NCBI RefSeq assembly: GCF_024502345.1
Contig: NZ_JALDNN010000001.1
Reading direction: 5' to 3' (one strand)
Source: Escherichia coli
Lineage (GTDB): Bacteria; Pseudomonadota; Gammaproteobacteria; Enterobacterales; Enterobacteriaceae
DNA: 64,000 bases
The stretch's first letter is position 1, and every line of letters starts with the position of its first letter. A model generated the notes under the pieces. It did no database searches. It was not told where the DNA came from and saw only the letters and a program-made list of their open reading frames with translations. This document shows positions 39,173-60,898 of this stretch, one piece after another. The translations under genes and the position numbers were made by a program.

Positions 39173-39468
39173 ATCCATTCTGATTCACCGAAGTCACTGG
39201 TCTGGTGTGACAGCGAGTACAGCCAGGCGTTATCCTTTTCCGTGATATGTGCGGTACTGCAGCGTATGCCGGCAAGGGTTGCAAACGGTGGTAGTGTGCA
39301 GGTTGACTGTTGGTCGGATTCCTCCACCACGCGGAGTGAATAACCGTTTTCAGCGACCTTGTTAATCAGTTCAGTGAGATTAACACCATCGACATCAACG
39401 ACAATTCGCCCCATGTTCAGTGCCTGCACATTAATGCTGTCGGCTTCCAACGTCAGGGCCAGTTTCAT
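39085..39468 (-). CDS. Hypothetical small protein downstream of the WYL regulator
   Basis: ATG at 39468 preceded by GGAGG; C-terminal extent uncertain because of overlap with 38477-39172. Confidence 0.4.
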   Translation of the reverse strand: MKLALTLEADSINVQALNMGRIVVDVDGVNLTELINKVAENGYSLRVVEESDQQSTCTLPPFATLAGIRCSTAHITEKDNAWLYSLSHQTSDFGESEWIHFTGTIVFQSSSVPDSTSPRGTREAGIK

Positions 39469-39577
39469 TGTTTCGCCTCCGGATGCTTCCCCTGGGTAAT
39501 GTTATTTACCGTTCTGTAGTTATCGCGGGTCATCAGGCCGGTTGCCCTGCGAGCCCGGAGAATATCAATACTGTTTA

Positions 39578-40228
39578 TTAACTGAGAGCGGGTAAGGACT
39601 GAATAAATCCCGGGTCTTCAACAAGACGACACAGACTGTCGTTACGCCGGAAAGTCTCCTGCAGGGGCTGAACCAGATGGATTTCATCCAGGGAGAATAC
39701 GGCGATATGTCCGTCGTGCTCTGCCACCAGATACCAGGCCTGCTGGTGGATAAGTAACCGGCAGGGAGCCAGCCGCTCACAGCGCTGCCCCTCGGCAATC
39801 AGAGTCACCCGCCTGCGCCCGGTAATGGCCTGAATCAGTCGCCAGAAAGACAATGCGCCTGATGGCGAAGGAGCCGGACTGGCGGGTGCGATTACGCAGG
39901 GAGACTCATCGCACATCAGCAGTGCGTTTACCAGACGACGGTCAAAGCCAGGGAAAAGACCGGCCATCCCGCTGCGGTGGGCAAAGATAAGCACGTCGGG
40001 CACCATCTGCGTCTCACTGCCCGCAGTGCGTAAGCGGTAATATCCGGACTGATACTCCAGGTCCAGATACATCAGCCGCTCACGAAAATCACGCCGCAGC
40101 GTGCGCACCGACACACCAAACTCAGCGGCAAGCTTACGCACACTCAGCGTTTCCCCTGCCACCAGACGGCTGATTATCAGTGACAGCCTGACAGCCAGCC
40201 GGTCATGGCGGCGTTCTGCCTGTGTCAT
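39578..40228 (-). CDS. HTH plus WYL-domain transcriptional regulator (YfjR-like), paralog of 35157-35870
   Basis: 216 aa; [28 protein letters not shown]; same architecture as the first WYL regulator. Confidence 0.7.
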
Positions 40229-42327: not shown

Positions 42328-43254
42328 CTACTTTTTGTCTTTTTTACGTGATGAAACAGCCTGCAGCCAAGCATGCTTCATTTTCTGAATAAAGAAATAT
42401 TTTTCTTCAACTCCAGTGTCCCAACTATCCATGCATGCAATGATCATCTGTATTCTCATTGCAGTGTTATATGGTTTTAAATAAAAGGGGATCATATTTT
42501 TATTTCTCAGATACTCCCAGCAATAGATAGCTTGCTTTTCATCTTTTTTATCTAGCCAGTCATAATCAGTAAGAAATGTATTATATTGCTCTAGCCATTT
42601 ATCATGCAACTTACGAAAATAGGAAATTTTCTGACTTAAACTTACAGGAGCTAAATCAATAAACCTCATCAAAGTACAAATGCGTTCTTGTTCGGATGTT
42701 GTATTCGGGCTGTAGTTGTCGGGATCTGCGCCAGATGTTAAATAAAATCTACGCGAGTATTTTTCAGGTATATCTCTATTTTTTTCTTTATTGCTAGGGG
42801 AGGTTCCCACCTGCATTTCGGCTTGTACTTCATCAAGTGAGAAATTTTTAATTTCATCAATGTTTATAAATTCAAAAAAGGATGCAGGAGTTGAGTTCGG
42901 GTTGTAAATATTATCTTGTGCAAAGATATTCACGCTCGAGGAGGTTTCAGGACTGATTCTGTTGTTATATATATACATTAAGGCAAACCACGATCCTCTA
43001 TCAGAACCTTTGAAACAATCGAACTTCTCTTTGTCAATGATTTTGTAATGGAACTGTTTTTTCAAGTAAGTACGCGCACTTTGTATTGCTTCATTATTGA
43101 ATAGGAATTTAGTGTTCAATATATGATTAATGAGTTTTTGAAATTCCTCAGGCGTGTCGAAATTACTCGCCTGCTTAATGTAATCTTCGTTGTAATACAG
43201 ACTCAGAACGTAAAGGGAAAAGAACTCCTCTCTCACTTCGTCATACCTAAGCAT
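42328..43254 (-). CDS. Hypothetical low-GC 308-aa protein, Asn/Lys/Tyr/Phe-rich
   Basis: Long ORF in strongly AT-rich DNA, first gene of the co-oriented block containing the YfjP/YfjQ/WYL genes. Confidence 0.5.
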   Translation of the reverse strand: MLRYDEVREEFFSLYVLSLYYNEDYIKQASNFDTPEEFQKLINHILNTKFLFNNEAIQSARTYLKKQFHYKIIDKEKFDCFKGSDRGSWFALMYIYNNRISPETSSSVNIFAQDNIYNPNSTPASFFEFINIDEIKNFSLDEVQAEMQVGTSPSNKEKNRDIPEKYSRRFYLTSGADPDNYSPNTTSEQERICTLMRFIDLAPVSLSQKISYFRKLHDKWLEQYNTFLTDYDWLDKKDEKQAIYCWEYLRNKNMIPFYLKPYNTAMRIQMIIACMDSWDTGVEEKYFFIQKMKHAWLQAVSSRKKDKK

Positions 43255-43572
43255 GTACCCTCCAGTGTGATATCACATCTGTCCGATGCTTTCAAAAGTA
43301 TAAATGAACCATGATGATTTGGCATCTGCAAGGTGACTGTTGACTGGTTTTTTGCTGATTTTTTAATGATAAAGTAGTGATTACTAACTGATTAGTAAGT
43401 GATTAATGGCTGGTTGCCTCCTGTGATTTTTCTGCCTCTGGTAAATTGGGGGAGAGTACTGATCAACTCACCACTCTGAATAATTTTCATGATTGCACTC
43501 TACAAAGTTTCGACATCCGTCAAATTGTAACGGTCAGAGAACAGCGTTACACGAGGTTTTCCGTATCTATGC

Positions 43573-44629
43573 GGCTTTGTTGAATAAATCGAACTTTTGC
43601 TGAGTTGAAGGATCAGATCACGTATCTTCCCGACAACGCAGACCGTTCCGTGGCAAAGCAAAAGTTCAAAATCACCAACTGGCCCACCTACAATAAAGCC
43701 CTCATCAACCGTGGCTCCATAACTTTCTGGCTGGATGATGAAGCTATTCAGGCCTGGTATGAGTCAGCAACACCTTCTTCACGAGGCAGACCTCAGCGCT
43801 ATTCTGACCTTGCCATCACGACTGTGCTGGTCATTAAACGCGTATTCAGGCTGACCCTGCGCGCTGCGCAGGGCTTTATTGATTCCATTTTTTCTCTGAT
43901 GAACGTTCCGCTACGCTGCCCGGATTACAGCTGTGTCAGCAGGCGGGCAAAGTCGGTTAATGTCAGTTTCAAAACGCCCACCCGGGGTGAAATCGCACAC
44001 CTGGTAATTGATTCCACCGGGCTGAAGGTCTTCGGTGAAGGCGAGTGGAAAGTCAAAAAGCATGGCCAGGAACGCCGCCGTATCTGGCGTAAGCTGCATC
44101 TCGCCGTTGACAGTAAAACACATGAAATCATCTGCGCTGACCTGTCGCTGAACAACGTTACGGACTCAGAGGCCTTCCCCGGGTTAATCCGGCAAACCCA
44201 CCGGAAAATCAGGTCAGCCGCCGCCGATGGCGCTTACGATACCCGGCTATGTCACGATGAACTGCGGCGTAAGAAAATCAGCGCGCTTATCCCTCCCCGA
44301 AAAGGTGCGGGTTACTGGCCCGGTGAATATGCAGACCGTAACCGTGCAGTGGCTAATCAGCGAATGACCGGGAGTAATGCGCGGTGGAAATGGACAACAG
44401 ATTACAACCGTCGCTCGATAGCGGAAACGGCGATGTACCGGGTAAAACAGCTGTTCGGGGGTTCACTGACACTGCGTGACTACGATGGTCAGGTTGCAGA
44501 GGCTATGGCCCTGGTACGAGCGCTGAACAAAATGACGAAAGCAGGTATGCCTGAAAGCGTGCGTATTGCCTGAAAACACAACCCGCTACGGGGGAGACTT
44601 ACCCGAAATCTGATTTATTCAACAAAGCC
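43573..44629 (+). mobile_element. IS903-group (IS5 family) insertion sequence, complete, 1057 bp, no target-site duplication
   Basis: Terminal inverted repeats GGCTTTGTTGAATAAATC at 43573-43590 and 44612-44629; flanking 9-mers tatctatgc vs actgtgttt differ. Confidence 0.9.
43605..44573 (+). CDS. IS903-type transposase
   Basis: 322-aa ORF MKDQITYLPDNADRSVAKQKFKITNWPTYNKALINRGSITFWLDDEAIQAWY... with DDE motif region. Confidence 0.9.
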   Translation: MKDQITYLPDNADRSVAKQKFKITNWPTYNKALINRGSITFWLDDEAIQAWYESATPSSRGRPQRYSDLAITTVLVIKRVFRLTLRAAQGFIDSIFSLMNVPLRCPDYSCVSRRAKSVNVSFKTPTRGEIAHLVIDSTGLKVFGEGEWKVKKHGQERRRIWRKLHLAVDSKTHEIICADLSLNNVTDSEAFPGLIRQTHRKIRSAAADGAYDTRLCHDELRRKKISALIPPRKGAGYWPGEYADRNRAVANQRMTGSNARWKWTTDYNRRSIAETAMYRVKQLFGGSLTLRDYDGQVAEAMALVRALNKMTKAGMPESVRIA

Positions 44630-45024
44630 ACTGTGTTTATCAAATTCCATGCCCTTTTTGCTGCTTAATTTTAAATGACACTCTGATCATGCACCGTGAT
44701 TGAAATAAGTTATAGCCACCCCTTAATCATTTTTTTCAGACGACATTAACTTCGGAGTAAATAATTTAACACAATGAAATATCAAACCGCATCTGGCCTG
44801 AATGTTGAGTATTAATACGTGACGGATTGTTAATATATATCAGTACATAAACCCCAATATTCCAGTAATACACACCTACACAATACACACCAAGCAATTT
44901 AGTCAGCATCACCCAACTAACATCCAACACAAACTCAATAAGCCAGATTTGATACCACCTAATTACCTCAACCATCGCGGGTAAGGTTCCGTCCTGCCCG
45001 ATATTCAGATCACAGGAATCTATT

Positions 45025-45636
45025 ATGCTTAATGATATTTATCTTGACCAACGTCATGCCCCATTCAATACAACGTATTTGCAACGGATGCTGGGTGTAA
45101 TTGATAACGCTATAGCACAACACCCAAGGACAATGGCTGTCCGTGTCGATCTACGTCTGCCTGATGACAACTGTAATAGGAATAGTGGTCTGATATCCCG
45201 TTTCATTGAATCGCTTAATGCAAAAATCGATGCTCGGTACCGAAATAAAATAAAGAATGGCATCAGGAGCTACCCATGCCAGTTGCGTTACGCCTGGGTT
45301 CGGGAAGTGGGAGAAATAAACGAGAAGTCCCATTACCACATGGTACTTTTCGTGAACAAAGACACATTCAATGGACTTGGGAGCTATGGAGAAGGGGGAA
45401 CGGGATTAGCCAGCCTGATACGTGAAGCCTGGCTGAGCGCTTTGCAACTAGGCCCTTACCCCGAATACCGAACGTTGGTCCACATCCCGGACAACCCATT
45501 GTATTACCTGGACGTCAATAATTTAGACTACAAAACGGTTTACGATAAACTCACTTTCAGGCTGAGTTATTTTGCGAAAGAGCGCACCAAGTCATACAGC
45601 CGAGATGAACGCTCGTTTGGCTGCAGTCAGTCCTGA
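45025..45636 (+). CDS. YagK/YfjJ-family protein (inovirus Gp2-like), CP4-type island backbone
   Basis: 203 aa; MLNDIYLDQRHAPFNTTYLQRM...YHMVLFVNKDTF pattern recalled for YfjJ/YagK. Confidence 0.55.
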   Translation: MLNDIYLDQRHAPFNTTYLQRMLGVIDNAIAQHPRTMAVRVDLRLPDDNCNRNSGLISRFIESLNAKIDARYRNKIKNGIRSYPCQLRYAWVREVGEINEKSHYHMVLFVNKDTFNGLGSYGEGGTGLASLIREAWLSALQLGPYPEYRTLVHIPDNPLYYLDVNNLDYKTVYDKLTFRLSYFAKERTKSYSRDERSFGCSQS

Positions 45637-45871
45637 GGCAAAACAAACTAAGTCTATAAAGATTTTTTCAGCCTGGCTCTAATCGACTGAATCTCAGCAT
45701 ACTCCGCTTTTGAAGCCTTGACACGTCAGTTGTTCTTTCACCTCTGAGTGGCTACTCGCGACTGCCTGCAGGAGACTGATTATGTTATTGACCGCAAAAT
45801 CCATTAACTGACTTTTCGACTTAATCTCCTTAAGTTATGTGAGAAATTTGCCGATATGAAAACATGATCCT

Positions 45872-45908
45872 CCAGTCGCTACTGACATGCCCTGTCAGTA
45901 GCGACTGG
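45872..45908. promoter_or_regulatory. Perfect 16-bp inverted repeat with 5-nt spacer upstream of the HTH gene fragment
   Basis: ccagtcgctactgaca-tgccc-tgtcagtagcgactgg, ~35 bp upstream of the ATG at 45942. Confidence 0.4.
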
Positions 45909-45941
45909 TAATCTCAAGGAAAAATTACAAGGAGAACGCGC

Positions 45942-46176
45942 ATGAGCGGGCATGAGGTAATGGTACAAAGAATAACCGCTATTATTGCAGAACTTTACCA
46001 GTACGGTTTTGTATCACGTAAGAAGATGATGGACGAATTCAACATCAGTGAGCGTACTTTGTATCGTGATCTTAATCGTCTGGGCGACAGAATCGTCCCC
46101 GATGGTGATGGTATTTACAGGCTGGCTCCCGCTTACGCTAAACCTCAGGCTCTAAAAGAACAACAAAATCTCGGCC
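45942..46176 (+). pseudogene. HTH (DeoR-like) regulator gene, 5' fragment (~78 codons), joined without IS to appC
   Basis: MSGHEVMVQRITAIIAELYQYGFVSRKKMMDEFNISERTLYRDLNRL; frame runs into appC sequence at ~46175. Confidence 0.45.
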
Positions 46177-47133
46177 ATGTTTATTATGGCGATCAGCGCC
46201 TGGTATTTACTGCGCGGACGGGAGCGCGATGTCGCATTACGCTCGTTTGCCATCGGTTCCGTCTTCGGTACTCTGGCGATTATTGGCACGCTGCAACTCG
46301 GAGACAGTTCTGCGTATGAAGTCGCGCAAGTACAACCGGTAAAACTGGCGGCGATGGAAGGGGAGTGGCAAACGGAACCTGCACCTGCACCGTTCCATGT
46401 GGTTGCCTGGCCGGAACAGGATCAAGAGCGTAACGCCTTTGCCATCAAAATTCCCGCGCTGCTAGGGATCCTCGCCACTCACTCATTAGATAAACCCGTG
46501 CCGGGTCTGAAGAATTTGATGGCTGAAACCTACCCACGCTTGCAACGCGGACGTATGGCCTGGCTGTTAATGCAGGAAATATCGCAAGGCAATCGTGAGC
46601 CGCATGTGTTGCAGGCATTCCGGGAACTGGAAGGTGACCTGGGCTACGGCATGTTGCTCTCCCGCTATGCGCCGGATATGAATCATGTCACAGCCGCACA
46701 GTACCAGGCGGCGATGCGTGGTGCAATACCTCAGGTTGCGCCGGTATTCTGGAGTTTCCGCATCATGGTGGGCTGTGGTTCCCTGCTGCTACTGGTGATG
46801 CTGATTGCGCTTGTCCAGACGCTGCGTGGCAAAATCGACCAGCATCGCTGGGTGCTGAAAATGGCGCTCTGGAGTTTGCCGTTGCCGTGGATTGCGATTG
46901 AAGCCGGGTGGTTTATGACCGAGTTTGGTCGTCAGCCGTGGGCGATACAGGACATCTTACCGACATACTCCGCGCACTCCGCCTTAACCACAGGACAACT
47001 GGCTTTCTCACTGATCATGATCGTAGGGCTTTACACCCTGTTCTTAATCGCCGAAGTCTACCTGATGCAGAAATATGCCCGTCTGGGGCCGAGCGCGATG
47101 CAGAGTGAACAACCGACGCAGCAACAGGGGTAA
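46177..47133 (+). pseudogene. appC: Cytochrome bd-II oxidase subunit I (AppC/CbdA), 3' portion only (~318 of ~514 codons)
   Basis: C-terminal AppC sequence ...WIAIEAGWFMTEFGRQPWAIQDILPTYSAHS...; N-terminal heme-binding half absent. Confidence 0.8.
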
Positions 47134-47144
47134 AGGAGAAAATC

Positions 47145-48281
47145 ATGTTTGATTATGAAACATTGCGCTTCATCTGGTGGCTGCTGATTGGCGTGATCCT
47201 GGTGGTCTTTATGATCTCCGACGGATTTGACATGGGGATCGGCTGTTTGCTGCCGCTGGTGGCGCGTAATGATGATGAACGCCGGATAGTGATTAATAGC
47301 GTTGGTGCGCACTGGGAAGGCAATCAGGTCTGGTTGATCCTCGCAGGTGGGGCATTATTTGCCGCCTGGCCCAGAGTGTATGCAGCGGCGTTTTCCGGCT
47401 TTTATGTGGCGATGATCCTGGTGCTGTGCTCGCTGTTCTTCCGCCCGCTGGCCTTTGATTATCGCGGAAAAATCGCCGATGCACGCTGGCGTAAAATGTG
47501 GGATGCCGGTCTGGTCATCGGCAGTCTGGTGCCGCCGGTAGTCTTCGGTATCGCCTTCGGCAACTTGTTGCTCGGCGTGCCGTTTGCCTTCACACCGCAA
47601 TTACGCGTGGAGTATCTCGGCAGCTTCTGGCAACTGCTGACGCCATTCCCTTTATTGTGCGGATTGCTCAGCCTTGGGATGGTGATTTTGCAAGGTGGCG
47701 TCTGGTTACAACTGAAAACTGTTGGTGTGATTCATCTGCGTTCACAGCTGGCGACTAAACGCGCTGCACTGTTGGTGATGCTGTGCTTTTTGCTGGCGGG
47801 TTACTGGCTGTGGGTCGGTATTGATGGCTTTGTACTGCTCGCCCAGGATGCTAACGGTCCTTCCAATCCGTTAATGAAACTGGTGGCAGTGCTACCTGGT
47901 GCCTGGATGAATAATTTTGTCGAGTCGCCCGTTTTGTGGATCTTCCCGCTACTGGGGTTCTTCTGCCCATTGCTGACGGTGATGGCGATTTATCGTGGTC
48001 GCCCGGGTTGGGGATTTTTGATGGCATCATTGATGCAATTTGGCGTGATTTTCACGGCAGGCATCACGCTGTTCCCCTTTGTCATGCCGTCAAGCGTGAG
48101 TCCAATCTCCAGCCTGACGTTGTGGGACAGCACTTCCAGTCAGCTGACGCTGAGTATTATGTTGGTAATCGTGCTGATATTTTTGCCCATTGTGTTGCTC
48201 TACACTCTCTGGAGCTACTACAAAATGTGGGGGCGCATGACGACAGAAACTCTCCGCCGTAACGAAAACGAGCTGTACTAA
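47145..48281 (+). CDS. appB: Cytochrome bd-II oxidase subunit II (AppB/CbdB)
   Basis: 378-aa membrane protein [33 protein letters not shown]... Confidence 0.9.
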
Positions 48282-48293
48282 GGAGCAGGAACA

Positions 48294-48386
48294 ATGTGGT
48301 ATTTACTTTGGTTCGTCGGCATTTTGTTGATGTGTTCGCTCTCCACCCTTGTGTTGGTATGGCTGGACCCGCGATTGAAAAGTTAA
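48294..48386 (+). CDS. appX: Cytochrome bd-II accessory small membrane protein AppX
   Basis: 30-codon ORF MWYLLWFVGILLMCSLSTLVLVWLDPRLKS with SD AGGAGCAGG upstream. Confidence 0.7.
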   Translation: MWYLLWFVGILLMCSLSTLVLVWLDPRLKS

Positions 48387-48465
48387 CGAACGTAAGTCTG
48401 ATGCGGCGCATTAGCGTCGTATCAGGCAATCAATAATGTCGGATATGAAAAGCGGAAACATATCG

Positions 48466-49764
48466 ATGAAAGCGATCTTGATCCCATTTTTATCTCTTCT
48501 GATTCCGTTAACCCCGCAATCTGCATTCGCTCAGAGTGAGCCGGAGCTGAAGCTGGAAAGTGTGGTGATTGTCAGTCGTCATGGTGTGCGTGCCCCAACC
48601 AAGGCCACGCAACTGATGCAGGATGTCACCCCAGACGCATGGCCAACCTGGCCGGTAAAACTGGGTTGGCTGACACCGCGCGGTGGTGAGCTAATCGCTT
48701 ATCTCGGACATTACCAACGCCAGCGTCTGGTAGCCGACGGATTGCTGACGAAAAAGGGCTGCCCGCAGCCTGGTCAGGTCGCGATTATTGCTGATGTCGA
48801 CGAGCGTACCCGTAAAACAGGCGAAGCCTTCGCCGCCGGGCTGGCACCTGACTGTGCAATAACCGTACATACCCAGGCAGATACGTCCAGTCCCGATCCG
48901 TTATTTAATCCTCTAAAAACTGGCGTTTGCCAACTGGATAACGCGAACGTGACTGACGCGATCCTCAGCAGGGCTGGAGGGTCAATTGCTGACTTTACCG
49001 GGCATCGGCAAACGGCGTTTCGCGAACTGGAACGGGTGCTTAATTTTCCGCAATCAAACTTGTGCCTTAACCGTGAGAAACAGGACGAAAGCTGTTCATT
49101 AACGCAGGCATTACCATCGGAACTCAAGGTGAGCGCCGACAATGTCTCATTAACCGGTGCGGTAAGCCTCGCATCAATGCTGACGGAGATATTTCTCCTG
49201 CAACAGGCACAGGGAATGCCGGAGCCGGGGTGGGGAAGGATCACTGATTCACACCAGTGGAACACGTTGCTAAGTTTGCATAACGCGCAATTTTATTTAC
49301 TACAACGCACGCCGGAGGTTGCCCGCAGCCGCGCCACCCCGTTGTTGGATTTGATCATGACAGCGTTGACGCCCCATCCACCGCAAAAACAGGCGTATGG
49401 TGTGATATTACCCACTTCAGTGCTGTTTATCGCCGGACACGATACTAATCTGGCAAATCTCGGCGGCGCACTGGAGCTCAACTGGACGCTTCCAGGTCAG
49501 CCGGATAACACGCCGCCAGGTGGTGAACTGGTGTTTGAACGCTGGCGTCGGCTAAGCGATAACAGCCAGTGGATTCAGGTTTCGCTGGTCTTCCAGACTT
49601 TACAGCAGATGCGTGATAAAACGCCGCTGTCATTAAATACGCCGCCCGGAGAGGTGAAACTGACCCTGGCAGGATGTGAAGAGCGAAATGCGCAGGGCAT
49701 GTGTTCGTTGGCCGGTTTTACGCAAATCGTGAATGAAGCACGCATACCGGCGTGCAGTTTGTAA
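48466..49764 (+). CDS. appA: Periplasmic acid phosphatase / phytase AppA
   Basis: 432 aa from MKAILIPFLSLLIPLTPQSAFA; histidine acid phosphatase motif RHGVRAP. Confidence 0.9.
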   Translation: MKAILIPFLSLLIPLTPQSAFAQSEPELKLESVVIVSRHGVRAPTKATQLMQDVTPDAWPTWPVKLGWLTPRGGELIAYLGHYQRQRLVADGLLTKKGCPQPGQVAIIADVDERTRKTGEAFAAGLAPDCAITVHTQADTSSPDPLFNPLKTGVCQLDNANVTDAILSRAGGSIADFTGHRQTAFRELERVLNFPQSNLCLNREKQDESCSLTQALPSELKVSADNVSLTGAVSLASMLTEIFLLQQAQGMPEPGWGRITDSHQWNTLLSLHNAQFYLLQRTPEVARSRATPLLDLIMTALTPHPPQKQAYGVILPTSVLFIAGHDTNLANLGGALELNWTLPGQPDNTPPGGELVFERWRRLSDNSQWIQVSLVFQTLQQMRDKTPLSLNTPPGEVKLTLAGCEERNAQGMCSLAGFTQIVNEARIPACSL

Positions 49765-49774
49765 TGCATAAAAA

Positions 49775-49800
49775 AGAGCATTCAGCTACCTGAATGCTCT
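49775..49800. terminator. Hairpin between convergent appA and etk ends
   Basis: Perfect 11-bp inverted repeat agagcattcag-ctac-ctgaatgctct. Confidence 0.45.
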
Positions 49801-49830
49801 GAGGCTGATGACAAACGAAGAACTGTCTAA

Positions 49831-49870
49831 TGCGTAGACCGGAAAAGGCGTTCACGCCGCATCCGGTCAC
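49831..49870. repeat. REP (repetitive extragenic palindromic) element
   Basis: tgcgtagaccggaaaaggcgttcacgccgcatccggtcac resembles the E. coli REP consensus. Confidence 0.5.
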
Positions 49871-49883
49871 TTTACCTTCAGTT

Positions 49884-50578
49884 TTACTCTTTCTCGGAGT
49901 AACTATAACCGTAATAGTTATAGCCGTAACTGTAAGCGGTGCTGGCGCGTTTAATCACACCATTGAGGATAGCGCCTTTAATATTGACGCCTGCCTGTTC
50001 CAGACGCTGCATTGACAAGCTCACCTCTTTGGCGGTGTTCAGGCCAAAACGCGCAACCAGCAGGCTGGTGCCGACAGAGCGCCCCACGACCGCAGCATCG
50101 CTCACCGCCAGCATCGGCGGCGTATCGACAATCACCAGATCGTAATGGTCGTTCGCCCATTCCAGTAATTGACGCATCCGATCGCGCATCAGCAGTTCAG
50201 ACGGGTTAGGTGGCATCTGACCGCGAGTAATCACATCAAAGCCTCCTTTGCCAAAATGCTGGATCACTTTGTTGAGCTCATCTTTACCTGCCAGATATTC
50301 CGACAAGCCATGTGCATTACTCACGGTAAACAGGTTATGCGAATAACCATGGCGTAAGTCGGCATCAATAAATAACACTTTTTGATCGGACTGGGCGATC
50401 ACCGCTGCCAGAGTTGAACTGACAAATGTTTTACCACTGTCTGGCGTCGCACCGGTGATCATCAGAATGTTATTCTCAGTCTCCATCATAGCGAAATGCA
50501 GACTGGTTCGTAGCGCACGTACGGCTTCCACAGCAGAATCCGCCGGGTTATCCACCGCCAGGAAGGGGATATTTTTAG
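49884..50578 (-). pseudogene. etk: Tyrosine-protein kinase Etk/Wzc family, C-terminal ~230 codons only; 5' part removed at the IS5 junction
   Basis: Walker A/B kinase domain (GATPDSGKTFVSSTLAAV, DLVIVDTPP) and Tyr-rich tail YSYGYNYYGYSYSEKE; reading frame runs into the IS5 end at 50579. Confidence 0.75.
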
Positions 50579-51773
<1,195 letters not shown>

Positions 51774-52368
51774 CAAGAGAACGCAACAGCGCACTTGCTT
51801 TGCCACAGTTGAATTTTGTGCCGTAACGATGTGCAAGCATGTAAGCATAAGGAGTCAAGGTATAGCGTGTTACTTAGTTACTCGGATTAACAATCCCAAC
51901 GTACAGAGCGGCGGATTTACAGAGTCAGCGCAGTCCCTGCTCCGGCAGTCAGTGGCAGGCGGCGTACTGAAGCAAACCATTATCGATACCGGCATCGGCG
52001 ATACCATCGGCATGCTGATGTCACACGGCAATATTTCTCCCTACATCATGGCGTGGTTGATAACCGTGCTGATCCGTCTGGCAACGGGTCAGGGCGTGGT
52101 CTCAGCCATGACGGCGGCGGGGATTATTAGCGCAGCAATCCTCGACCCGGCAACCGGTCAACTGGTGGGCGTCGACCCGGCGTTGCTGGTGCTGGCAACA
52201 GCGGCTGGCTCCAACACGCTGACCCATATCAACGATGCTTCGTTCTGGCTGTTCAAAGGCTACTTTGATCTGTCGGTGAAGGATACGCTGAAAACCTGGG
52301 GTCTGCTGGAGCTGGTAAACTCCGTGGTTGGCCTGATAATCGTGTTGATCATCAGCATGATTGCATAA
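51774..52368 (+). pseudogene. GntP-family permease, C-terminal fragment
   Basis: ...[44 protein letters not shown]...[27 protein letters not shown]; 5' boundary not resolved, upstream frame runs into IS5. Confidence 0.55.
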
Positions 52369-52417
52369 CGTTGATACCGCTCTGGCCCACAGCGCCAGAG
52401 CGGTTTTCCATCCTGCC

Positions 52418-53113
52418 TCAACAATCCTCAATAATCAGATATACCGCCTTCACCGGACCATGCACCCCAACCACCTTGATAAGCTCAATATCCGCCGTCG
52501 AGCTGGGTCCACTGATGATATTAATGCACGATGGCATACGCTCACCGGCCTGTGCTTTCTGATGCAGTTTTTCTGCCAGCTGCGCCACGCGCGGCAGGAT
52601 GGTGCTTTTACGCAGCACGAAAATAGAGGACTCCGGCAACAGGCTCAGGGAGCGCCCGCGCTCCGGTGCGGAAAACAGCACCACGCCGCCGGACTCGGTC
52701 AGGCCATATTCGGCATACACCACGCCGACTTTCGCCTGCTCGGCCTGGGTAATATTTTCGCTACCACGCGCCGGATCCCAGACCACGGCGTTGCATTCCT
52801 GCTGCAAGCGTTCGGTGATGCCCAGCTCCACCAGCCGGCTGTCGCCGCTCAGCACCACCGGCTGCTGACCCAATTCTTCGCACAGGCGCAGTGCCGCGTC
52901 TGCGGCCTGGTCCTCGCTGGTCAGTTCGCAGCGGGCCAGCATCACTTCGCTGGCAAACTGGATAAACGCAGAGCAGCGCTGCTCGGGGCTAAGCTCGGTC
53001 AGGCGCTCGTTGGCATAGTTGTTAACCGGTGCGGCATCCGCTTGCGGTTCGAAGCGCAGCGGGCGACCCAGCGCCTGGGCGATGGTGTTTAAAAACGCGG
53101 TACGGTTATCCAT
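52418..53113 (-). CDS. ykgG: LutC-like lactate utilization protein YkgG
   Basis: 231 aa from MDNRTAFLNTIAQALGRPL; overlaps ykgF stop. Confidence 0.85.
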   Translation of the reverse strand: MDNRTAFLNTIAQALGRPLRFEPQADAAPVNNYANERLTELSPEQRCSAFIQFASEVMLARCELTSEDQAADAALRLCEELGQQPVVLSGDSRLVELGITERLQQECNAVVWDPARGSENITQAEQAKVGVVYAEYGLTESGGVVLFSAPERGRSLSLLPESSIFVLRKSTILPRVAQLAEKLHQKAQAGERMPSCINIISGPSSTADIELIKVVGVHGPVKAVYLIIEDC

Positions 53114-54533
53114 TCTTTTTCTCCTGCGCCTGATGTTTCTTAAACCAGCTGCGGAAGCTCTCGCCGTCAGCATCAGGCAGATCGCGCGCCTCCATCCAGT
53201 CACCAATCGCGCCAACCTTGAGCGGGGTTTTGCCGCCATTGATAAACCAGCTCGCCGCATGCGCGCCCGCCATCATCCCGACTTTCCACAGCCCCGGATG
53301 GCTATTGGCATAGGCGAACATCTTGATCGCCCGTCGCTCGGCTTTCGGCGTAATGCCCTCCTCGGCCATCACCCGGCGATGACGCAGGATCAGTTTTGAC
53401 AACGGAATACGCACCGGGCAGACGCTGTCACAAGCCGTGCACAAAGAACAGGCGTACGGCAGGTCTTTAAAATCTTTATAGCCGCCGAGCAGCGGAGAAA
53501 TCACCGCGCCGATAGGGCCGGGATAGATAGAGCCATAGCCGTGCCCGCCGATGTGGCGGTACGCCGGACAGGTGTTCATACAGGCTCCGCAGCGGATGCA
53601 GCGCAGCACATCGCGAAACTCTGAGCCCAGCACCTGCGAGCGACCGTTATCGACAATCACCAGATGGAACTCTTCCGGTCCGTCAACGTTGTCCGCCTCA
53701 CGCGGGCCGGTCAGCCAGGTGTTGTAGCCCGTCAGACGTGCGCCCACGGCGCTGCGCGCCAGCATGGTAATCAGCACATCCACCTCGGCAAAGGTCGGCG
53801 CGATACGCTCCATGCCCATCACCGCAATGTGCGTTTTCGGTAGCGTGGTGCACATGCGCGCGTTGCCTTCGTTGGTCACCAGACACACCGAGCCGGTTTC
53901 CGCCACGGCAAAGTTACAGCCAGTAATACCGATTTCGGCACTGAGGAAATCCTCGCGGATCTTCTGACGAATGAACAAGGTCATAGCTTCCGGGGTTTCC
54001 GGGCCGTCGTACCCCAGACGTTCGTTCAGCACGCGGCGGATCTGGTAGCGATCTTTATGAATCGCCGGAACCACGACGTGCGAAGGCGGATCCTGATCCA
54101 ACTGCAGGATATATTCCCCGAGATCGGTTTCGATCACCTGGATTCCGGCATCCTGCAACACATGGTTGACGCTGATTTCTTCGGTCACCATCGACTTGGA
54201 CTTCACCACCTTCTGCGCATTTTTACTCTGCGCGACCTGCAAAATGTAGCGAGTGGCATCTTCTTTGGTTTTGGCGAAATAGACGTGTCCGCCGTTTTCC
54301 GTCACTTTCTCGGAGAGTTGGTACAGGTAAGCGTCGAGGTTGCTCAGAACGTGATCGCGGATCTGGCTGGCACGATCGCGCCATTCTTCCCAGTGGCCTA
54401 ACTCATCGACCATTTTTTGCCGATTCGCGCCGATACGCTCCTGCGCATTAGCCACGGCTTTGCGCATAATCGGATCTTCTATCTGCTGACGAATACGCAG
54501 TTTAAATTCTACATCGCTGGTTTTTATCGACAT
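53106..54533 (-). CDS. ykgF: LutB-like iron-sulfur lactate utilization protein YkgF
   Basis: 475 aa with two CxxCxxCxxxCP ferredoxin motifs. Confidence 0.85.
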   Translation of the reverse strand: MSIKTSDVEFKLRIRQQIEDPIMRKAVANAQERIGANRQKMVDELGHWEEWRDRASQIRDHVLSNLDAYLYQLSEKVTENGGHVYFAKTKEDATRYILQVAQSKNAQKVVKSKSMVTEEISVNHVLQDAGIQVIETDLGEYILQLDQDPPSHVVVPAIHKDRYQIRRVLNERLGYDGPETPEAMTLFIRQKIREDFLSAEIGITGCNFAVAETGSVCLVTNEGNARMCTTLPKTHIAVMGMERIAPTFAEVDVLITMLARSAVGARLTGYNTWLTGPREADNVDGPEEFHLVIVDNGRSQVLGSEFRDVLRCIRCGACMNTCPAYRHIGGHGYGSIYPGPIGAVISPLLGGYKDFKDLPYACSLCTACDSVCPVRIPLSKLILRHRRVMAEEGITPKAERRAIKMFAYANSHPGLWKVGMMAGAHAASWFINGGKTPLKVGAIGDWMEARDLPDADGESFRSWFKKHQAQEKKNG

Positions 54534-54543
54534 CTCTTTCCCC

Positions 54544-55263
54544 TCAGCGGCTCATCAGCACTTCAGCAATATGCATCACTTTGACCGGCTGGCCTTCCCG
54601 TTGCAGTCGACCGCCAATGTTCAGCAGGCAGCTAACGTCTGCGCCAATCAAAAATTCCGGCTTTGCGTCCATCAGATGTAATACTTTCTCTTTCACCATC
54701 TCACCGGATATCTCGGCCATCTTGACCGAGAACGTCCCGCCAAAGCCGCAACAGGTATCCTGATCGGCAAACGTCAACAGCTCCAGTCCGCGCACGTTTT
54801 TCAGCAGCGTAAGCGGCTCTTCCTTCACTCCCAGTTTGCGGGTCAGGCTACAGGAAGGATGATACACAGCGCGGCCCTGCAGGCTGGCACCAACGTCCAC
54901 CACACCCAGTTTGTTGACGATAAAGGAGGTGAGATCCTGCATACGCGCGGAAACTTTCTCAGCACGCAGCGCCCATTCCGGTTCATCGGCCAGATACGTC
55001 GGGTAGCTTTTAACCGCGTAGGTGCAGGAGCCCGCCGGGGAGATAATCGGATCGTCGTTGTCTTCCAGCGCGGCGATCAGGTTTTTCATCCCGGGGATCG
55101 CCTCTTTGATGTAACCGCTGTTGATGGCTGGCTGACCGCAACACCCTTGCTTCTCGGGGAAATTAACGCGACAACCCAGTTTTTCCAGCAGCAATACGGA
55201 GTCTCGTGCCATCCGTGATTTCAGTGCGTCACCAATACAGGTGACAAAGAAATTTACATTCAC
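54544..55263 (-). CDS. ykgE: LutA-like Fe-S oxidoreductase YkgE (cysteine-rich domain)
   Basis: 239 aa MNVNFFVTCIGDALKSRMARDSVLLLEKLGCRV... with CCG motifs. Confidence 0.85.
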   Translation of the reverse strand: MNVNFFVTCIGDALKSRMARDSVLLLEKLGCRVNFPEKQGCCGQPAINSGYIKEAIPGMKNLIAALEDNDDPIISPAGSCTYAVKSYPTYLADEPEWALRAEKVSARMQDLTSFIVNKLGVVDVGASLQGRAVYHPSCSLTRKLGVKEEPLTLLKNVRGLELLTFADQDTCCGFGGTFSVKMAEISGEMVKEKVLHLMDAKPEFLIGADVSCLLNIGGRLQREGQPVKVMHIAEVLMSR

Positions 55264-55337
55264 AATAACTACTCCATTGCTTCATTTCTGTTTATTGCGC
55301 TTGATATCGCGATATCAAACAAATGTTCATTCGTATT

Positions 55338-57035
55338 TCATGCCCAGTTTTTATGTTTGCTGGTTTTACCAATACCTGGGTTCATAGTGTTGGTCGGATC
55401 ATTTTCCTGATAAAAACGTGCCAAATTTTCCGGCGCTTTATACAGATGGCCGACATTGTGTTCCGCCGGATATTGCGCTCCGCGTTGGCGCAGTAATTCC
55501 AGCATCTGTTCTTTTAACGCGTGGGCATCTACGCCTTTTTTAACGATATAATCCTGATGGAATACATGGCACATAAAATGGCCGTAATAGAGTTTATGCA
55601 CCAACTGACTGTCAATTTCCGCCGGTAAATGCTCATACCATTCGGTATCATTGCGGCGTAATGCAATATCCAGCGCGAGAATATCCTCAACCTCGTCAGA
55701 ATGAACGGCCTGATAACGAATGGCAGCACCCGCGGCGGCAAAACGATGCAGAAACGCCTTACTGCCCTCTTCCGCGGTACAGGTAAAGAACGCGCCCTCG
55801 GCCGATTTAAAATAGTCCGTTAACCATGCCTGGGCTTCGGCCACACCCTCACCGGACATTTTCAACATCAGATGGTGTTCATAGTTATCGCGCCAGGTCT
55901 TCATCCGCGCCGGGAGATGGCTCGGGAACAGATGGCTAAAAGCCTGCATCGCGCGGTCGGTAAAGTGCGGGCGAAAGATCTTCACCTTCTCAAGTATGGC
56001 CTCGGTACGCCCCTTCAGGTTGAAGAAGAACGGCATTTTGTCCGTGCCAAGTTTGTCGATCATCAGGAAGGTATCTTTGCTGTATTTCTCTGCAATATCA
56101 TAGATATCGCGGTGCATATACTCCCCAGCAACCGGCAGGTTTGTAAAATTCGCCAGGATGTGGCGGCGAATCTCAGTCAGGACATCAGTCTGATTGGTAC
56201 CGATATAAAAGACCTGCTGGTTCTTCTCGGCTTCAAAGGTATCCAGACGTACGGCAAACACCGCTAACTTGCCCGCACAGCCAGAGGATTCAAACAGGCG
56301 ATCCGGGTCAGCGTTGTAACGTGCTGGCGTGTCGGCATTGATGTCCCGCACGCGGCTAACATAGTCGTGATCGTGCGCGTGACGCCCGTCATGGTTGACG
56401 AGCACGGCTTCAATCGCATTGTTATCCAGCCGGGCAAGGATTTGCTCTGGCGTCTGACCTAGCTCAATGCCGAGGTGATTGACCAGCTGCAAGCGTCCCT
56501 GTTCATCAATACGGGCAAACAGCGACATCTCGGTATAAGCCGGGCCACGCTGGACCAGAGAACCGCCGGAGTTATTACAGATACCGCCGATAACCGACGC
56601 GCCGATGCACGAAGAGCCAATCACCGAATGCGGCTCACGGCCAAACGGCTTCAGCGCCTTTTCCAGCGAATACAGCGTGGTGCCCGGATAAGCCAGCACC
56701 TGCTTACCCTCATCCAGCACATGCAGACTGTCCAGCCGCAGCGTGCTGATAATGACGATCTCGCGGTCGTAATCATTACCATTGGGCGTCGAACCCTCAG
56801 TCAGGCCAGTGTTCGACGCCTGCATCAGGATTATTTTATCGGCCTCAACGCAGGCGCTAAGGACTTTCCAGAGTTCAAGCAAAGAGCCGGGGATAACCAC
56901 CGCCAGAGCATCACCCTGACCCGAGCGAAAACCCTTACGGTAACGCGCAGTTTTTGACGGTTCGGTGAGGATATGAGCAGGGCCAACCAATTGGGTAAGA
57001 GTTGTCAAAAAGGTCTTATTATCAGTATGTTTCAT
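55338..57035 (-). CDS. FAD-dependent D-lactate dehydrogenase, Dld paralog
   Basis: ~565 aa from MKHTDNKTFLTTLTQLVGPAHILTEPSKTARYRKGFRSGQGDALAVV; ORF-track start at 57083 is probably an extension. Confidence 0.8.
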   Translation of the reverse strand: MKHTDNKTFLTTLTQLVGPAHILTEPSKTARYRKGFRSGQGDALAVVIPGSLLELWKVLSACVEADKIILMQASNTGLTEGSTPNGNDYDREIVIISTLRLDSLHVLDEGKQVLAYPGTTLYSLEKALKPFGREPHSVIGSSCIGASVIGGICNNSGGSLVQRGPAYTEMSLFARIDEQGRLQLVNHLGIELGQTPEQILARLDNNAIEAVLVNHDGRHAHDHDYVSRVRDINADTPARYNADPDRLFESSGCAGKLAVFAVRLDTFEAEKNQQVFYIGTNQTDVLTEIRRHILANFTNLPVAGEYMHRDIYDIAEKYSKDTFLMIDKLGTDKMPFFFNLKGRTEAILEKVKIFRPHFTDRAMQAFSHLFPSHLPARMKTWRDNYEHHLMLKMSGEGVAEAQAWLTDYFKSAEGAFFTCTAEEGSKAFLHRFAAAGAAIRYQAVHSDEVEDILALDIALRRNDTEWYEHLPAEIDSQLVHKLYYGHFMCHVFHQDYIVKKGVDAHALKEQMLELLRQRGAQYPAEHNVGHLYKAPENLARFYQENDPTNTMNPGIGKTSKHKNWA

Positions 57036-57470
57036 GGAGGGCGGCTCTCCGCTCCTTATATCAGGGCCAGTGAAAATGGCCATAAGTTCATTTGTACGAC
57101 AAAACAGAATATTCCCTCAATCAATATCCACATGCAATACCCCATTTTATTTCTTTCGGCACCGCTCACATTTTTTAATGAAATTACCACTACCACATAA
57201 TTCATACTCCGTTCTTTTACTGGATGCCAAAACGCTTATTTCATTTATTGCAAAGACCATTTCATACCTATTAATGATTAACTCTAATGGGTATTATTAT
57301 ATTTAGTGGTTATTCATGTTTAATAAAAAAATAACATTATTTATACAATTATTAACCTTTGTAACTTTATTTCACTGAAGCGATTCAGTTTGCATTTTTT
57401 ATTTTATTATTAAGGTAGCCTCCTTCCCCCTAAATATAGTTAAGTCTAAAAAAGTAAATCGGGAATTGTA

Positions 57471-59024
57471 ATGCACGAATATTTAATGTTTGCTCTGGCA
57501 CTCTCTCCTTTGCTGCTGATGGTATTTTTAATACTGAAATTAAAAATGCCCATCCATTATTCCGTACTGATCTCTTTGGTATTCACTGCTGCACTATCGG
57601 CAATATTCTGGGAAATGCCCACACAGAATCTGAAAGCCGCGATAGGCTATGGTGCACTGAAGGGACTATGGCCGATCGTAATTGTTATCCTCGGCGCTAT
57701 CTTCAGTTATAACGTCATGCAGGCGACCAAAGCGCTGGATATTCTGCGCGATATTCTCGCCAGCATTAGCGAAGATAAGCGTATTCAGGTGCTGCTGATT
57801 TCATGGTGTTTTGGTGGATTTCTTGAAGCCGCTGCGGGCTATGGCACGGCGGTCGCTATTCCGATCGGTATTCTCATTGCGCTGGGATTCAACCCGTTGA
57901 AGGCGGCGATTGCTTCCCTCGTAGCAAATACCGTTCCGACCGCATTTGGCGCGGTTGGGATCCCGGTTTCTATTCTGGCAGAGCAGGTTAATCTGCCGGT
58001 TTATACCTTAGGCGGAACCATTATTTTGCAGCTCGCGCTGTTTAATATCCTGCTGCCGTTTGTGATTGTCTGCATTATTGGCGGTGGCCTGAAAGCCATT
58101 CGCGGCGTATTTCTGATCACGTTGATTTGCGGCATTTCCACGCTGGTTCCGCAATATTTTGTCGCCATCCATCTTGGCGCGGAATTACCCGCCTTTGCCG
58201 GTAGCCTGGTCAGCCTGTTTGCCGTGGCGATGGTCAGTCGCCTGCGCAAAGGGAAAACCGATCCCGAGTGGCGCATTGAGGTCAGCCATACCCGCGAAAC
58301 CACGCCGCGCTCGGCAAAAGTGTTGTTCCGGGTTGGCTCTATTTATCTGTTTATTTTTGTGTTTATCCTGCTGTGTTCGCCGCTGTTCCCGACAATAAAA
58401 GGCGCGGCATCCCAACTGGCTTCGGTGCTGCATTTCCCGTTGGCTGACGGCAAAACGATGGCGCTGAAAGTTGAATGGGCGACCACACCGGGGATGCTGA
58501 TCATCTTTGCGACCATTATCGGCGGTTTTATTCAGGGAGCGTCCGCACGTGGGATGCTGGAAGTATTTATCAAAACGATTTTCCAGCTTAAAAACTCTAT
58601 CGTCGCAATTATGGCGATCGTCGCGCTGGCCACGGTGATGGATCTCAGCGGGATTATCTCCACGCTGGCCCAGTCGATTGTCGATCTGACCGGCAGCTCG
58701 TACGTCTTCCTCGCCCCGGTGATTGGCGCGCTGGGCACGTTCGTGACCGGCAGCGATACCAACTCGAACATTCTGTTCGGCAAGCTGCAAACCATTGCCG
58801 CCAGCAAGTTACATATCGATCCTAACTGGCTGGCGGCGGCCAATACCTCTGGCGCTACGGGGGGGAAAATGATTTCGCCGCAAAGCATCGCCATCGCAGT
58901 TTCTGCCACCAAAATGGACGGTCAGGCCAACCAGATTATGTCTGGCACCATGAAATACTGCTGCGCCTACATTGTGATCCTCGGCCTGAAAGTCGGTCTG
59001 TTTTATTACTGGTTTATGGCGTAA
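57471..59024 (+). CDS. L-lactate permease family transporter (LctP)
   Basis: 517-aa multi-TM protein with LctP-family C-terminal block TGSDTNSNILFGKLQ...[13 protein letters not shown]; divergent from the dld-like gene. Confidence 0.8.
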   Translation: MHEYLMFALALSPLLLMVFLILKLKMPIHYSVLISLVFTAALSAIFWEMPTQNLKAAIGYGALKGLWPIVIVILGAIFSYNVMQATKALDILRDILASISEDKRIQVLLISWCFGGFLEAAAGYGTAVAIPIGILIALGFNPLKAAIASLVANTVPTAFGAVGIPVSILAEQVNLPVYTLGGTIILQLALFNILLPFVIVCIIGGGLKAIRGVFLITLICGISTLVPQYFVAIHLGAELPAFAGSLVSLFAVAMVSRLRKGKTDPEWRIEVSHTRETTPRSAKVLFRVGSIYLFIFVFILLCSPLFPTIKGAASQLASVLHFPLADGKTMALKVEWATTPGMLIIFATIIGGFIQGASARGMLEVFIKTIFQLKNSIVAIMAIVALATVMDLSGIISTLAQSIVDLTGSSYVFLAPVIGALGTFVTGSDTNSNILFGKLQTIAASKLHIDPNWLAAANTSGATGGKMISPQSIAIAVSATKMDGQANQIMSGTMKYCCAYIVILGLKVGLFYYWFMA

Positions 59025-59281
59025 ACCATTGTCAACCCCGTCAAATTCGCGGCAATCGAATTTGACGACATAGTGACCAAAAAGGTTTGCACCGCCCCGG
59101 GAACGGAACGAGGCAACAGACTTTACGATTTGTCGGCGCTGACTAAAATAGCGCCGATGTTTCAAATCGAGGATTGTTGTTATGTTGTTCTGGAAAAAGA
59201 TGGTGAAGAAGTTCGACGCCTTTTCCGGTGATGCTGCCAACTTACTGATTTAGTGTATGATGGTGTTTTTGAGGTGCTCCA

Positions 59282-59557
59282 GTGGCTTCTGTTTCTATCA
59301 GCTGTCCCTCCTGTTCAGCTACTGACGGGGTGGTGCGTAACGGCAAAAGCACCGCCGGACATCAGCGCTATCTCTGCTCTCACTGCCGTAAAACATGGCA
59401 ACTGCAGTTCACTTACACCGCTTCTCAACCCGGTACGCACCAGAAAATCATTGATATGGCCATGAATGGCGTTGGATGCCGGGCAACCGCCCGCATTATG
59501 GGCGTTGGCCTCAACACGATTTTCCGCCATTTAAAAAACTCAGGCCGCAGTCGGTAA
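59282..59557 (+). CDS. insA: IS1 InsA
   Basis: 91 aa [43 protein letters not shown]... Confidence 0.85.
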
Positions 59558-59979
59558 CCTCGCGCATACAGCCGGGCAGTGACGTCATCGTCTGCGCGGA
59601 AATGGACGAACAGTGGGGATACGTCGGGGCTAAATCGCGCCAGCGCTGGCTGTTTTACGCGTATGACAGGCTCCGGAAGACGGTTGTTGCGCACGTATTC
59701 GGTGAACGCACTATGGCGACGCTGGGGCGTCTTATGAGCCTGCTGTCACCCTTTGACGTGGTGATATGGATGACGGATGGCTGGCCGCTGTATGAATCCC
59801 GCCTGAAGGGAAAGCTGCACGTAATCAGCAAGCGATATACGCAGCGAATTGAGCGGCATAACCTGAATCTGAGGCAGCACCTGGCACGGCTGGGACGGAA
59901 GTCGCTGTCGTTCTCAAAATCGGTGGAGCTGCATGACAAAGTCATCGGGCATTATCTGAACATAAAACACTATCAATAA
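59476..59979 (+). CDS. insB: IS1 InsB (made as InsAB' by programmed frameshift)
   Basis: 167-aa overlapping ORF, typical IS1 organisation. Confidence 0.8.
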
Positions 59980-60253
59980 GTTGGAGTCATTACCGACCGG
60001 GTTAAACCGGAAATGCGACACCTCGGAAGTGTCTCCTGAAAACCTTTCATCAGTACGCTCATCATGCTGTTCATAGAGTAGTCCAAATACAGTACCGTAC
60101 AGTACGGTACGTTTTATATCTTGACTTCTGAGCGCCGTCAAATGAAAATGTACTCGTCAGTACGATTACGAACCCTACTATCTGACGTGATTCCGAAATC
60201 TGAGAACAAAAAGTGTTGGCCCCGGCCAGACACCTAAACTAACGAGGAAACAT

Positions 60254-60898
60254 ATGGATAAAAGAGCGCTTAAACGGCAACAGATCCTGGAGGTCGCATC
60301 CGGACTGTTTCGACAAAAGGGATTTGATGCCACGTCTATCTCAGAAATTAACGCGATTGTTGGTGGCTCAAAATCGACAATTTACAGTCACTTTTCTTCG
60401 AAAGAAGAGCTATTTGTAGAATGCATGTCTTCAGAAACTGAACAGTATATAAAAAGCATGACTATTGAAACTGCGGGGCAGGTGCGCCTTTTCAGAAAAT
60501 CACCACAGCTGGTCATCGAGCAATTTGCCGTTGCCTTTTTACGCTATATTTGCTCTCCGGATATTGTGGATTTGCAAAGATTAATGATTTCCGAGGCCGG
60601 AAGATCGGGTATCGGAGAATTATATTATGCGCGAATGCAAAAACTGCGTTCAAATGTTTCGGCGCTTTTTACCGATTTAATGAATCAAAATATTTTAAGA
60701 AAAGATGATCCTGTGTTGGCGGCTGAGTATTTTCGTTCTCTTCTCCAGGCCGACATACTGGAACCCTTGCTTTTAAAAGCAAGAAAGGATCAGCCTGACG
60801 AAAGTGAAATCGTCATGAAAGCGCAGGCCTCCGTTAATGCGTTTATGAAACTGTATGGTCCTGAAAAAATTGAGGATGTAGCAAAGACATCTTTCTAA
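60254..60898 (+). CDS. TetR/AcrR-family transcriptional regulator
   Basis: 214 aa; N-terminal HTH LEVASGLFRQKGFDATSISEINAIVGGSKSTIYSHFSSKEELF; AT-rich gene. Confidence 0.75.
   Translation: MDKRALKRQQILEVASGLFRQKGFDATSISEINAIVGGSKSTIYSHFSSKEELFVECMSSETEQYIKSMTIETAGQVRLFRKSPQLVIEQFAVAFLRYICSPDIVDLQRLMISEAGRSGIGELYYARMQKLRSNVSALFTDLMNQNILRKDDPVLAAEYFRSLLQADILEPLLLKARKDQPDESEIVMKAQASVNAFMKLYGPEKIEDVAKTSF

Follow-up and report, generated by a model that had tools for sequence, protein, structure and literature searches.

The IS1 elements of Escherichia coli (IS1A- and IS1B-type isoforms) are about 768 bp long, end in imperfect inverted repeats of about 23 bp, carry the frames insA and insB' joined by a -1 frameshift at an A6C motif, and are accompanied by a direct target duplication of 9 bp (sometimes 8-14 bp). 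Where the target duplication is missing, the cause is generally taken to be either adjacent deletion or recombination of one IS copy with another (PMC11708052). The locus described here, in a window of 64 kb (the whole stretch of E. coli DNA that was analysed), resembles such rearrangement joints: one IS lies between unrelated truncated sequences without a duplication, each junction recurs with other partners, and one end of the IS is the anchor of nested deletions. Signs of both processes, recombination of IS copies and adjacent deletion, are visible here. It differs from them in that ancestor and reciprocal product were not found, and the choice of the route is a matter of deduction. On its left side the locus can be compared to pseudo-compound units, in which accessory DNA is enclosed by two different ISs, and on its right side to the TetR-regulated tripartite MFS efflux systems of the EmrAB-TolC type. 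An IS1 as junction between two blocks is a well-known and ordinary outcome of IS biology; the sole item of mild novelty is a conserved small ORF, which is cut by the element. The features are listed in Table 1.

Table 1. Position of the features around the IS1 in the 64-kb window.
Feature	Position	Strand	Remarks
ISKpn26 (IS5 family)	50579-51773	-	opposite end of the lactate block
L-lactate permease gene	57471-59024	+	517 aa; last intact gene of the lutCBA-dld-permease block
Promoter-like site TTTACG-16 nt-TAAAAT	59122-59149	+	upstream of the small ORF; found in L002 and mapped to the window
Small ORF, first 15 codons	59182-59226	+	ATG at 59182; Shine-Dalgarno sequence GAGGAT at 59169-59174, seven bases upstream
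IS1 (IS1B-type), intact	59227-59994	+	768 bp; both termini and frames
IRL of IS1	59227-59249		
insA	59282-59557	+	
A6C frameshift site	59531-59539		
insB' frame	to 59979		
IRR of IS1	59972-59994		
NodT-family outer-membrane efflux factor gene, 5' remnant	59995-60074	-	at most 26 codons (MNSMMSVLMKGFQETLPRCRISGLTR), counted from the long start
Palindrome GTACCGTAC-A-GTACGGTAC	60092-60110		9+1+9, perfect; TetR/efflux divergent control region
TetR/AcrR-family regulator gene	60254-60898	+	without its divergent efflux operon

At the level of the element, no difference from the usual IS1 was found in length, repeats or frames. The canonical termini were matched exactly and once per end in the window (0 expected from shuffles), with the left end, GGTGATGCTGCC..., at 59227 and the right end closing at 59994. 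IRL (GGTGATGCTGCCAACTTACTGAT) and IRR (GGTAATGACTCCAACTTATTGAT) agree at 18 of 23 positions. InsA comprises 91 aa, and a -1 shift at the A6C motif (TTAAAAAAC at 59531) leads to an InsAB' of 232 aa; the Pfam models Zn_ribbon_InsA, HTH_Tnp_IS1 and DDE_Tnp_IS1 matched the product. The copy is 100% identical to that of strain G3/10, for which PGAP annotates an intact IS1B-family transposase gene with programmed frameshift. Where the window copy departs from the usual IS1 is in lacking the 9-bp target duplication, a property of the history of this copy and not of the element.

The preliminary description had stated that an ORF preceded by a Shine-Dalgarno sequence is cut by the IS1 end, that the 9-bp flanks differ and that the element marks a rearrangement boundary between the lactate cluster and the TetR/AraC/GGDEF segment. 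All three statements hold. The ORF is cut after codon 15. The flanks, GCCTTTTCC on the left (59218-59226) and GACCGGGTT on the right (59995-60003), are unrelated, and no repeat appeared at any offset: the boundaries were shifted by up to 3 bp and lengths of 7-14 bp were tried, for which the best repeat reached 60% identity, and the 30-bp flanks have no k-mer of 5 or more in common. Since a target duplication marks a primary insertion, its absence points to a secondary rearrangement at this IS1. In uninterrupted relatives the flanks are not contiguous and come from two unrelated loci. In the alleles from Citrobacter, E. coli and plasmids, the left flank runs on into the small ORF (...GCGTTGATTCCACCACGC) and then into REP sequences. 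The sequence before the right flank is ...CATCACTATCCTG, which is part of the efflux factor gene. With flanks from two different, identifiable loci, the element cannot be a simple insertion. The earlier reading is refined in two points, i.e. the interrupted “gene” is an ORF of 25 codons, and the right side is a truncated gene as well.

The full-length gene, which the preliminary description proposed to look for in related genomes, was found. It has only 25 codons, reads MLFWKKMVKKFDAFSALIPPRYFRV, and is followed by its stop codon and REP-type repeats; it is unannotated and belongs natively to the chromosomes of Citrobacter, where it follows the lactate permease gene. In eight Citrobacter species the intact ORF is chromosomal and lies between the permease gene and a convergent aromatic amino-acid transporter gene. 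Two further alleles of the block have intact copies as well. One of them, 96-97% identical, is found on E. coli chromosomes and is related to an allele on many Klebsiella plasmids; the other, about 87% identical, is carried by E. coli plasmids. In the window, the frame starting at 59182 reads MLFWKKMVKKFDAFS up to 59226 and continues for eight codons into IS1 (GDAANLLI), with a stop at 59251-59253 and a total of 23 aa. By itself, an ORF of 15 codons is no more than expected by chance, and the reality of the ORF therefore rests on its conservation in relatives and not on the sequence of the window.

Across Citrobacter, the ORF, its Shine-Dalgarno sequence and the promoter-like site form a nearly invariant block (window 59122-59226; L002 5423-5560; L012-L019), on both sides of which the sequences diverge with indels. 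The promoter-like site overlaps an inverted repeat, TCGGCGCT (59133-59140) and AGCGCCGA (59150-59157). Five sites of the ORF vary among ten alleles, and all five are synonymous third positions, where codons 1-14 of the Citrobacter matches were constrained by the search pattern. Third-position conservation is 0.91 in the ORF and 0.74 in the adjacent permease gene, hence some constraint at the nucleotide level acts in addition. An overlapping frame of 68-83 codons is called a hypothetical protein by PGAP and others. This frame is not conserved. In some alleles it is broken by upstream indels; all five substitutions of the ORF fall on first codon positions of this frame, and both of the two checked change the amino acid. 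The “hypothetical protein” called downstream of the permease gene in uninterrupted alleles is probably the wrong frame. The ORF matched no Pfam or NCBIfam model, and Rfam gave only sub-threshold matches to the REP-derived naRNA4, downstream, on the uninterrupted locus. The exact peptide of 25 aa occurred once, without a name, in a collection of 15 billion proteins, and a literature search found its sequence in no paper. From these sequence comparisons, we give it close to an even chance that the 25-codon ORF is a genuine, unannotated small gene of the Citrobacter lactate-utilisation locus, with its own putative promoter and Shine-Dalgarno sequence, possibly under dual protein and RNA constraint, annotated by the pipelines in the wrong frame and inactivated by IS1 in the whole E. 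coli lineage of the block. Studies of small proteins in Citrobacter could reasonably include this ORF as a candidate.

On the right side, IS1 joins the 5' end of a gene for an outer-membrane efflux factor. Assemblies without the IS1 have the TetR gene divergent from an OMF-MFP-MFS operon (NodT-family outer-membrane factor, EmrA-like membrane fusion protein and MFS pump), which is followed by genes for a 98-aa protein and an ion-channel protein and by further chromosomal genes. The uninterrupted outer-membrane factor (L020:4325-5821) scored 410 bits with TIGR01845 at a cut-off of 210 and thus belongs to the NodT family. The right end of IS1 corresponds to position 5742 of L020, and the part matching L020 5742-5821 is kept in the window. 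Should the shorter annotated start be the true one, only the leader of the gene is left. The body of the factor gene and the downstream MFP and MFS genes are absent from the window. They are likewise absent from all 5426 complete E. coli genomes searched; the intact operon was seen in other Escherichia assemblies and in the complete genome CP103751. The uninterrupted locus is alike to the EmrAB-TolC-like systems in its gene content and divergent TetR gene, whereas all that the window retains is the regulator gene, the control region and no more than 26 codons of the first gene. The divergent control region includes a 19-bp palindrome (GTACCGTACAGTACGGTAC) between efflux remnant and TetR gene, which has one mismatch in the uninterrupted L020 (GTACTGTAC...); the palindrome is probably the TetR operator. 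For annotation this means that the region harbors two unannotated truncations, of the small ORF and of the efflux factor gene, and a TetR regulator without its efflux operon.

The segment to the right of IS1 consists of genes for TetR, AraC, a diguanylate cyclase and an AI-2E transporter and of mmuPM. It is ordinary variable chromosomal DNA; in uninterrupted genomes it runs through the efflux operon and, in L030, on to proBA. The diguanylate cyclase gene has an internal stop in E. coli S43 (L003 7745-9529) and is intact in the window and in G3/10.

Each junction of the element was also found elsewhere without the other; the IS1 itself is intact, and on either side it adjoins a truncated gene. 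The left junction (codon 15 of the small ORF joined to IRL) was present in 43 of 43 E. coli records with a lactate-block allele of at least 99% identity (about 42 genomes). The 12 records displayed of these 43 all end at the identical base, and the remainder of the small ORF was found in none of the 43 records with the IS1-bearing allele. The bodies of IS1 at this junction vary. PGAP labels them IS1A, IS1B or IS1X2, and identity over the matched stretch of 1095 bp (end of the permease gene, junction and IS1) ranges from 94 to 99.9%. In NCTC9966 (L006 12528-13287), the element is a divergent isoform from base 127 on, with deletions of 2 bp and 6 bp, and is annotated as frameshifted. About 35 of the left-junction records are without the right junction, and at least five other right flanks are paired with the left junction; the DNA beyond IS1 comprises an alcohol dehydrogenase gene, an IS5 remnant followed by a CP4-57-like island, a helicase gene, or 'afuB-fbpC. 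The joint of IS1 and 'afuB-fbpC is resident in 456 genomes, roughly tenfold the number that carry this lactate-block allele.

In all, 18 genomes have the right junction (IRR joined to the efflux remnant and the TetR gene); the IS1 is the same in each of them, and their right flanks are 100% identical over 4006 bp. This junction has four left flanks, three or four of which are nested: the small ORF (as in the window), a site at window 43081 in L026 with a 100% identical flank, a site at window 42468 in L021, and a site upstream of ypjK in ECONIH4 and its relatives, a region present in G3/10 and absent from the window. Genomes with the right junction and without the lactate block at its left are ECONIH4, 2273-PO3, CAVP776, MSB1_9D and the 0H strains. 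The constant junction with varying left endpoints (L026, L021 and L008-L010 compared to window 42468-59226) looks like the outcome of repeated adjacent deletions promoted by IS1. Both junctions on one IS1 occur in 8 complete genome records and in the assemblies L023, L025 and L028. The two junctions have separate histories.

We consider it somewhat probable that the IS1 is a recombination joint, created by homologous recombination between two IS1 copies, and not a simple insertion. The IRL of one IS1 would have been fixed earlier inside the 25-codon ORF downstream of the lactate permease gene, and the IRR of a separate IS1 in the first codons of the efflux factor gene beside the segment from TetR to mmuPM. 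Homologous recombination between these two copies of the same orientation would then have placed the left junction of the lactate block and the right junction of the TetR segment on one IS1. Each original 9-bp duplicate would have stayed with the partner that was lost, and no duplication would therefore surround the element. This course is supported by the existence of alleles in which the small ORF is uninterrupted, and of others in which the OMF-MFP-MFS operon is. A transposing element keeps its own body, yet bodies are swapped at the constant left junction, which requires an exchange between IS1 copies; the pairing of the left junction with the widespread resident IS1 site at 'afuB-fbpC requires it, too. 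Because isoform swaps and resident-site pairing need such an exchange, recombination is favoured, and we infer a RecA-type exchange between IS1 copies rather than a deletion made by the transposase. Against this stands that no crossover point is visible, the IS1 of the window being 100% identical to the right-junction IS1 of ECONIH4. A primary insertion with its duplication would read GTCATTACC+GCCTTTTCC+GCGTTGAT in the small ORF and CTATCCTG+GACCGGGTT+GGTGATGC in the efflux gene. The order of events was deduced, because a search of 5426 complete E. coli genomes gave neither the reciprocal product nor an ancestor with a duplication at either site; JGI metagenome contigs gave no exact-pattern match to the two hypothetical intermediates. 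A search for termini gave no second IS1 within the 64-kb window with which the copy could pair.

An adjacent deletion promoted by IS1 through intramolecular replicative transposition is possible, if on the unlikely side. Here, a first insertion of IS1, with the normal 9-bp duplication, would have hit the 5' end of the efflux factor gene; its IRL would next have targeted the small ORF, located further to the left on this chromosome, which would delete the intervening DNA and create a new left junction free of a duplication. That duplications can go missing by adjacent deletion is recognised (PMC11708052). The right junction with its 4006 bp of flank is 100% identical among genomes, with the left endpoints at 43081 and 42468 nested in the DNA left of the lactate block of the window and that of ECONIH4 upstream of ypjK. 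Nested endpoints are reportedly the classical pattern of IS1 deletions (Reif and Saedler in 1975). They are also what speaks against the recombination of two IS1 copies, as the left junction of the window could be one more member of this series. However, the left junction is common to the approximately 35 records without the right junction, with other IS1 isoforms and right flanks. After an adjacent deletion, these would all have to descend from the type seen in the window, and would still need an exchange between IS1 copies. Moreover, the lactate block differs at 3-13 positions among contexts over the 5.0-7.4 kb compared, and the right flank at none in 4 kb. This slightly greater diversity of the block suggests that the left junction is older than the combination. 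That two IS1 copies were collapsed in assembly, by which the lactate block was falsely joined to the TetR segment, is very improbable. IS1 is highly repeated (a median of about 11 matching places per E. coli genome with any match, nearly all of them IS1) and short-read assemblies often break or misjoin at it, but the identical order of permease gene, IS1 and TetR gene was recovered in the 8 complete genome records, which come from different laboratories, and in the three further assemblies; a sequencing or assembly artefact is therefore not the cause. Practically negligible is the formal possibility that a simple insertion lost its 9-bp duplication by point mutations or sequencing errors, the outcome by which the preliminary description would have been overturned. 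The flanks are not diverged copies of each other (small ORF, GCGTTGATTCCACCACGC; efflux gene, CATCACTATCCTG; best alignment 60% at any offset) and belong to different loci, and the pair of junctions recurs at 99.6-100% identity in the 8 complete records.

An inversion between the resident IS1 beside 'afuB and the IS1 at the efflux gene was considered separately and is not supported, as G3/10 has tauA after mmuM and not afuC-afuB'-IS1.

The lactate block is composed of ISKpn26, a truncated gluconate permease gene, lutCBA, dld and the L-lactate permease gene. Its identity to the closest representatives of Citrobacter species is 92-95%. Because the small ORF and its surroundings are native to Citrobacter chromosomes, the block is, by its sequence, called Citrobacter-type and taken to be captured from this genus. 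ISKpn26, too, is without its 4-bp duplication (TTAG left, CAAG right), and truncates a gene on either side, that for the gluconate permease and that for the tyrosine kinase (etk). From ISKpn26 to IS1, the block was found in at least four different chromosomal contexts, always with ISKpn26 at one end and IS1 at the other, as in a pseudo-compound unit. Unlike in a true compound transposon, the ends are from different IS families and neither has a duplication, and therefore the block cannot move as such a transposon. We infer that it was relocated through homology with resident IS copies. The locus documents the shuffling of a Citrobacter-origin lactate block, capped by ISKpn26 and IS1, via such copies in a hypervariable region of E. 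coli near thrW and mmuPM, and, at the right junction, an IS1 next to which DNA appears to have been deleted repeatedly.

A circular sequence of 13,429 bp (L007, CP056566.1, pRHBSTW-00386_2) was deposited as a plasmid without replicon typing. It contains nothing but IS5, the lactate block, IS1 and 'afuB-fbpC-mmuM-mmuP. Recombination between two IS5 copies may have released it as a circle, or the record may be an artefact of assembly.

The window is collinear with G3/10 and its relatives from about 39.6 kb on. Collinearity begins at 39590, inside a WYL-domain gene; before this position, approximately 450 bp (window about 39159-39604) correspond to the DUF5983/CbtA toxin region of a CP4-like island. 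A further deletion or recombination joint, by which ypjK-yfjS-ykfB and neighbours would have been removed, is suggested at about 39590. The segment 'appC-appB-appA-etk'-ISKpn26 is present in two copies in G3/10 (L011 6977-13734 and 46174-49949). In the window (about 45301-51773) it adjoins the lactate block, away from its usual chromosomal neighbours, and the app gene block appears to travel with the IS.
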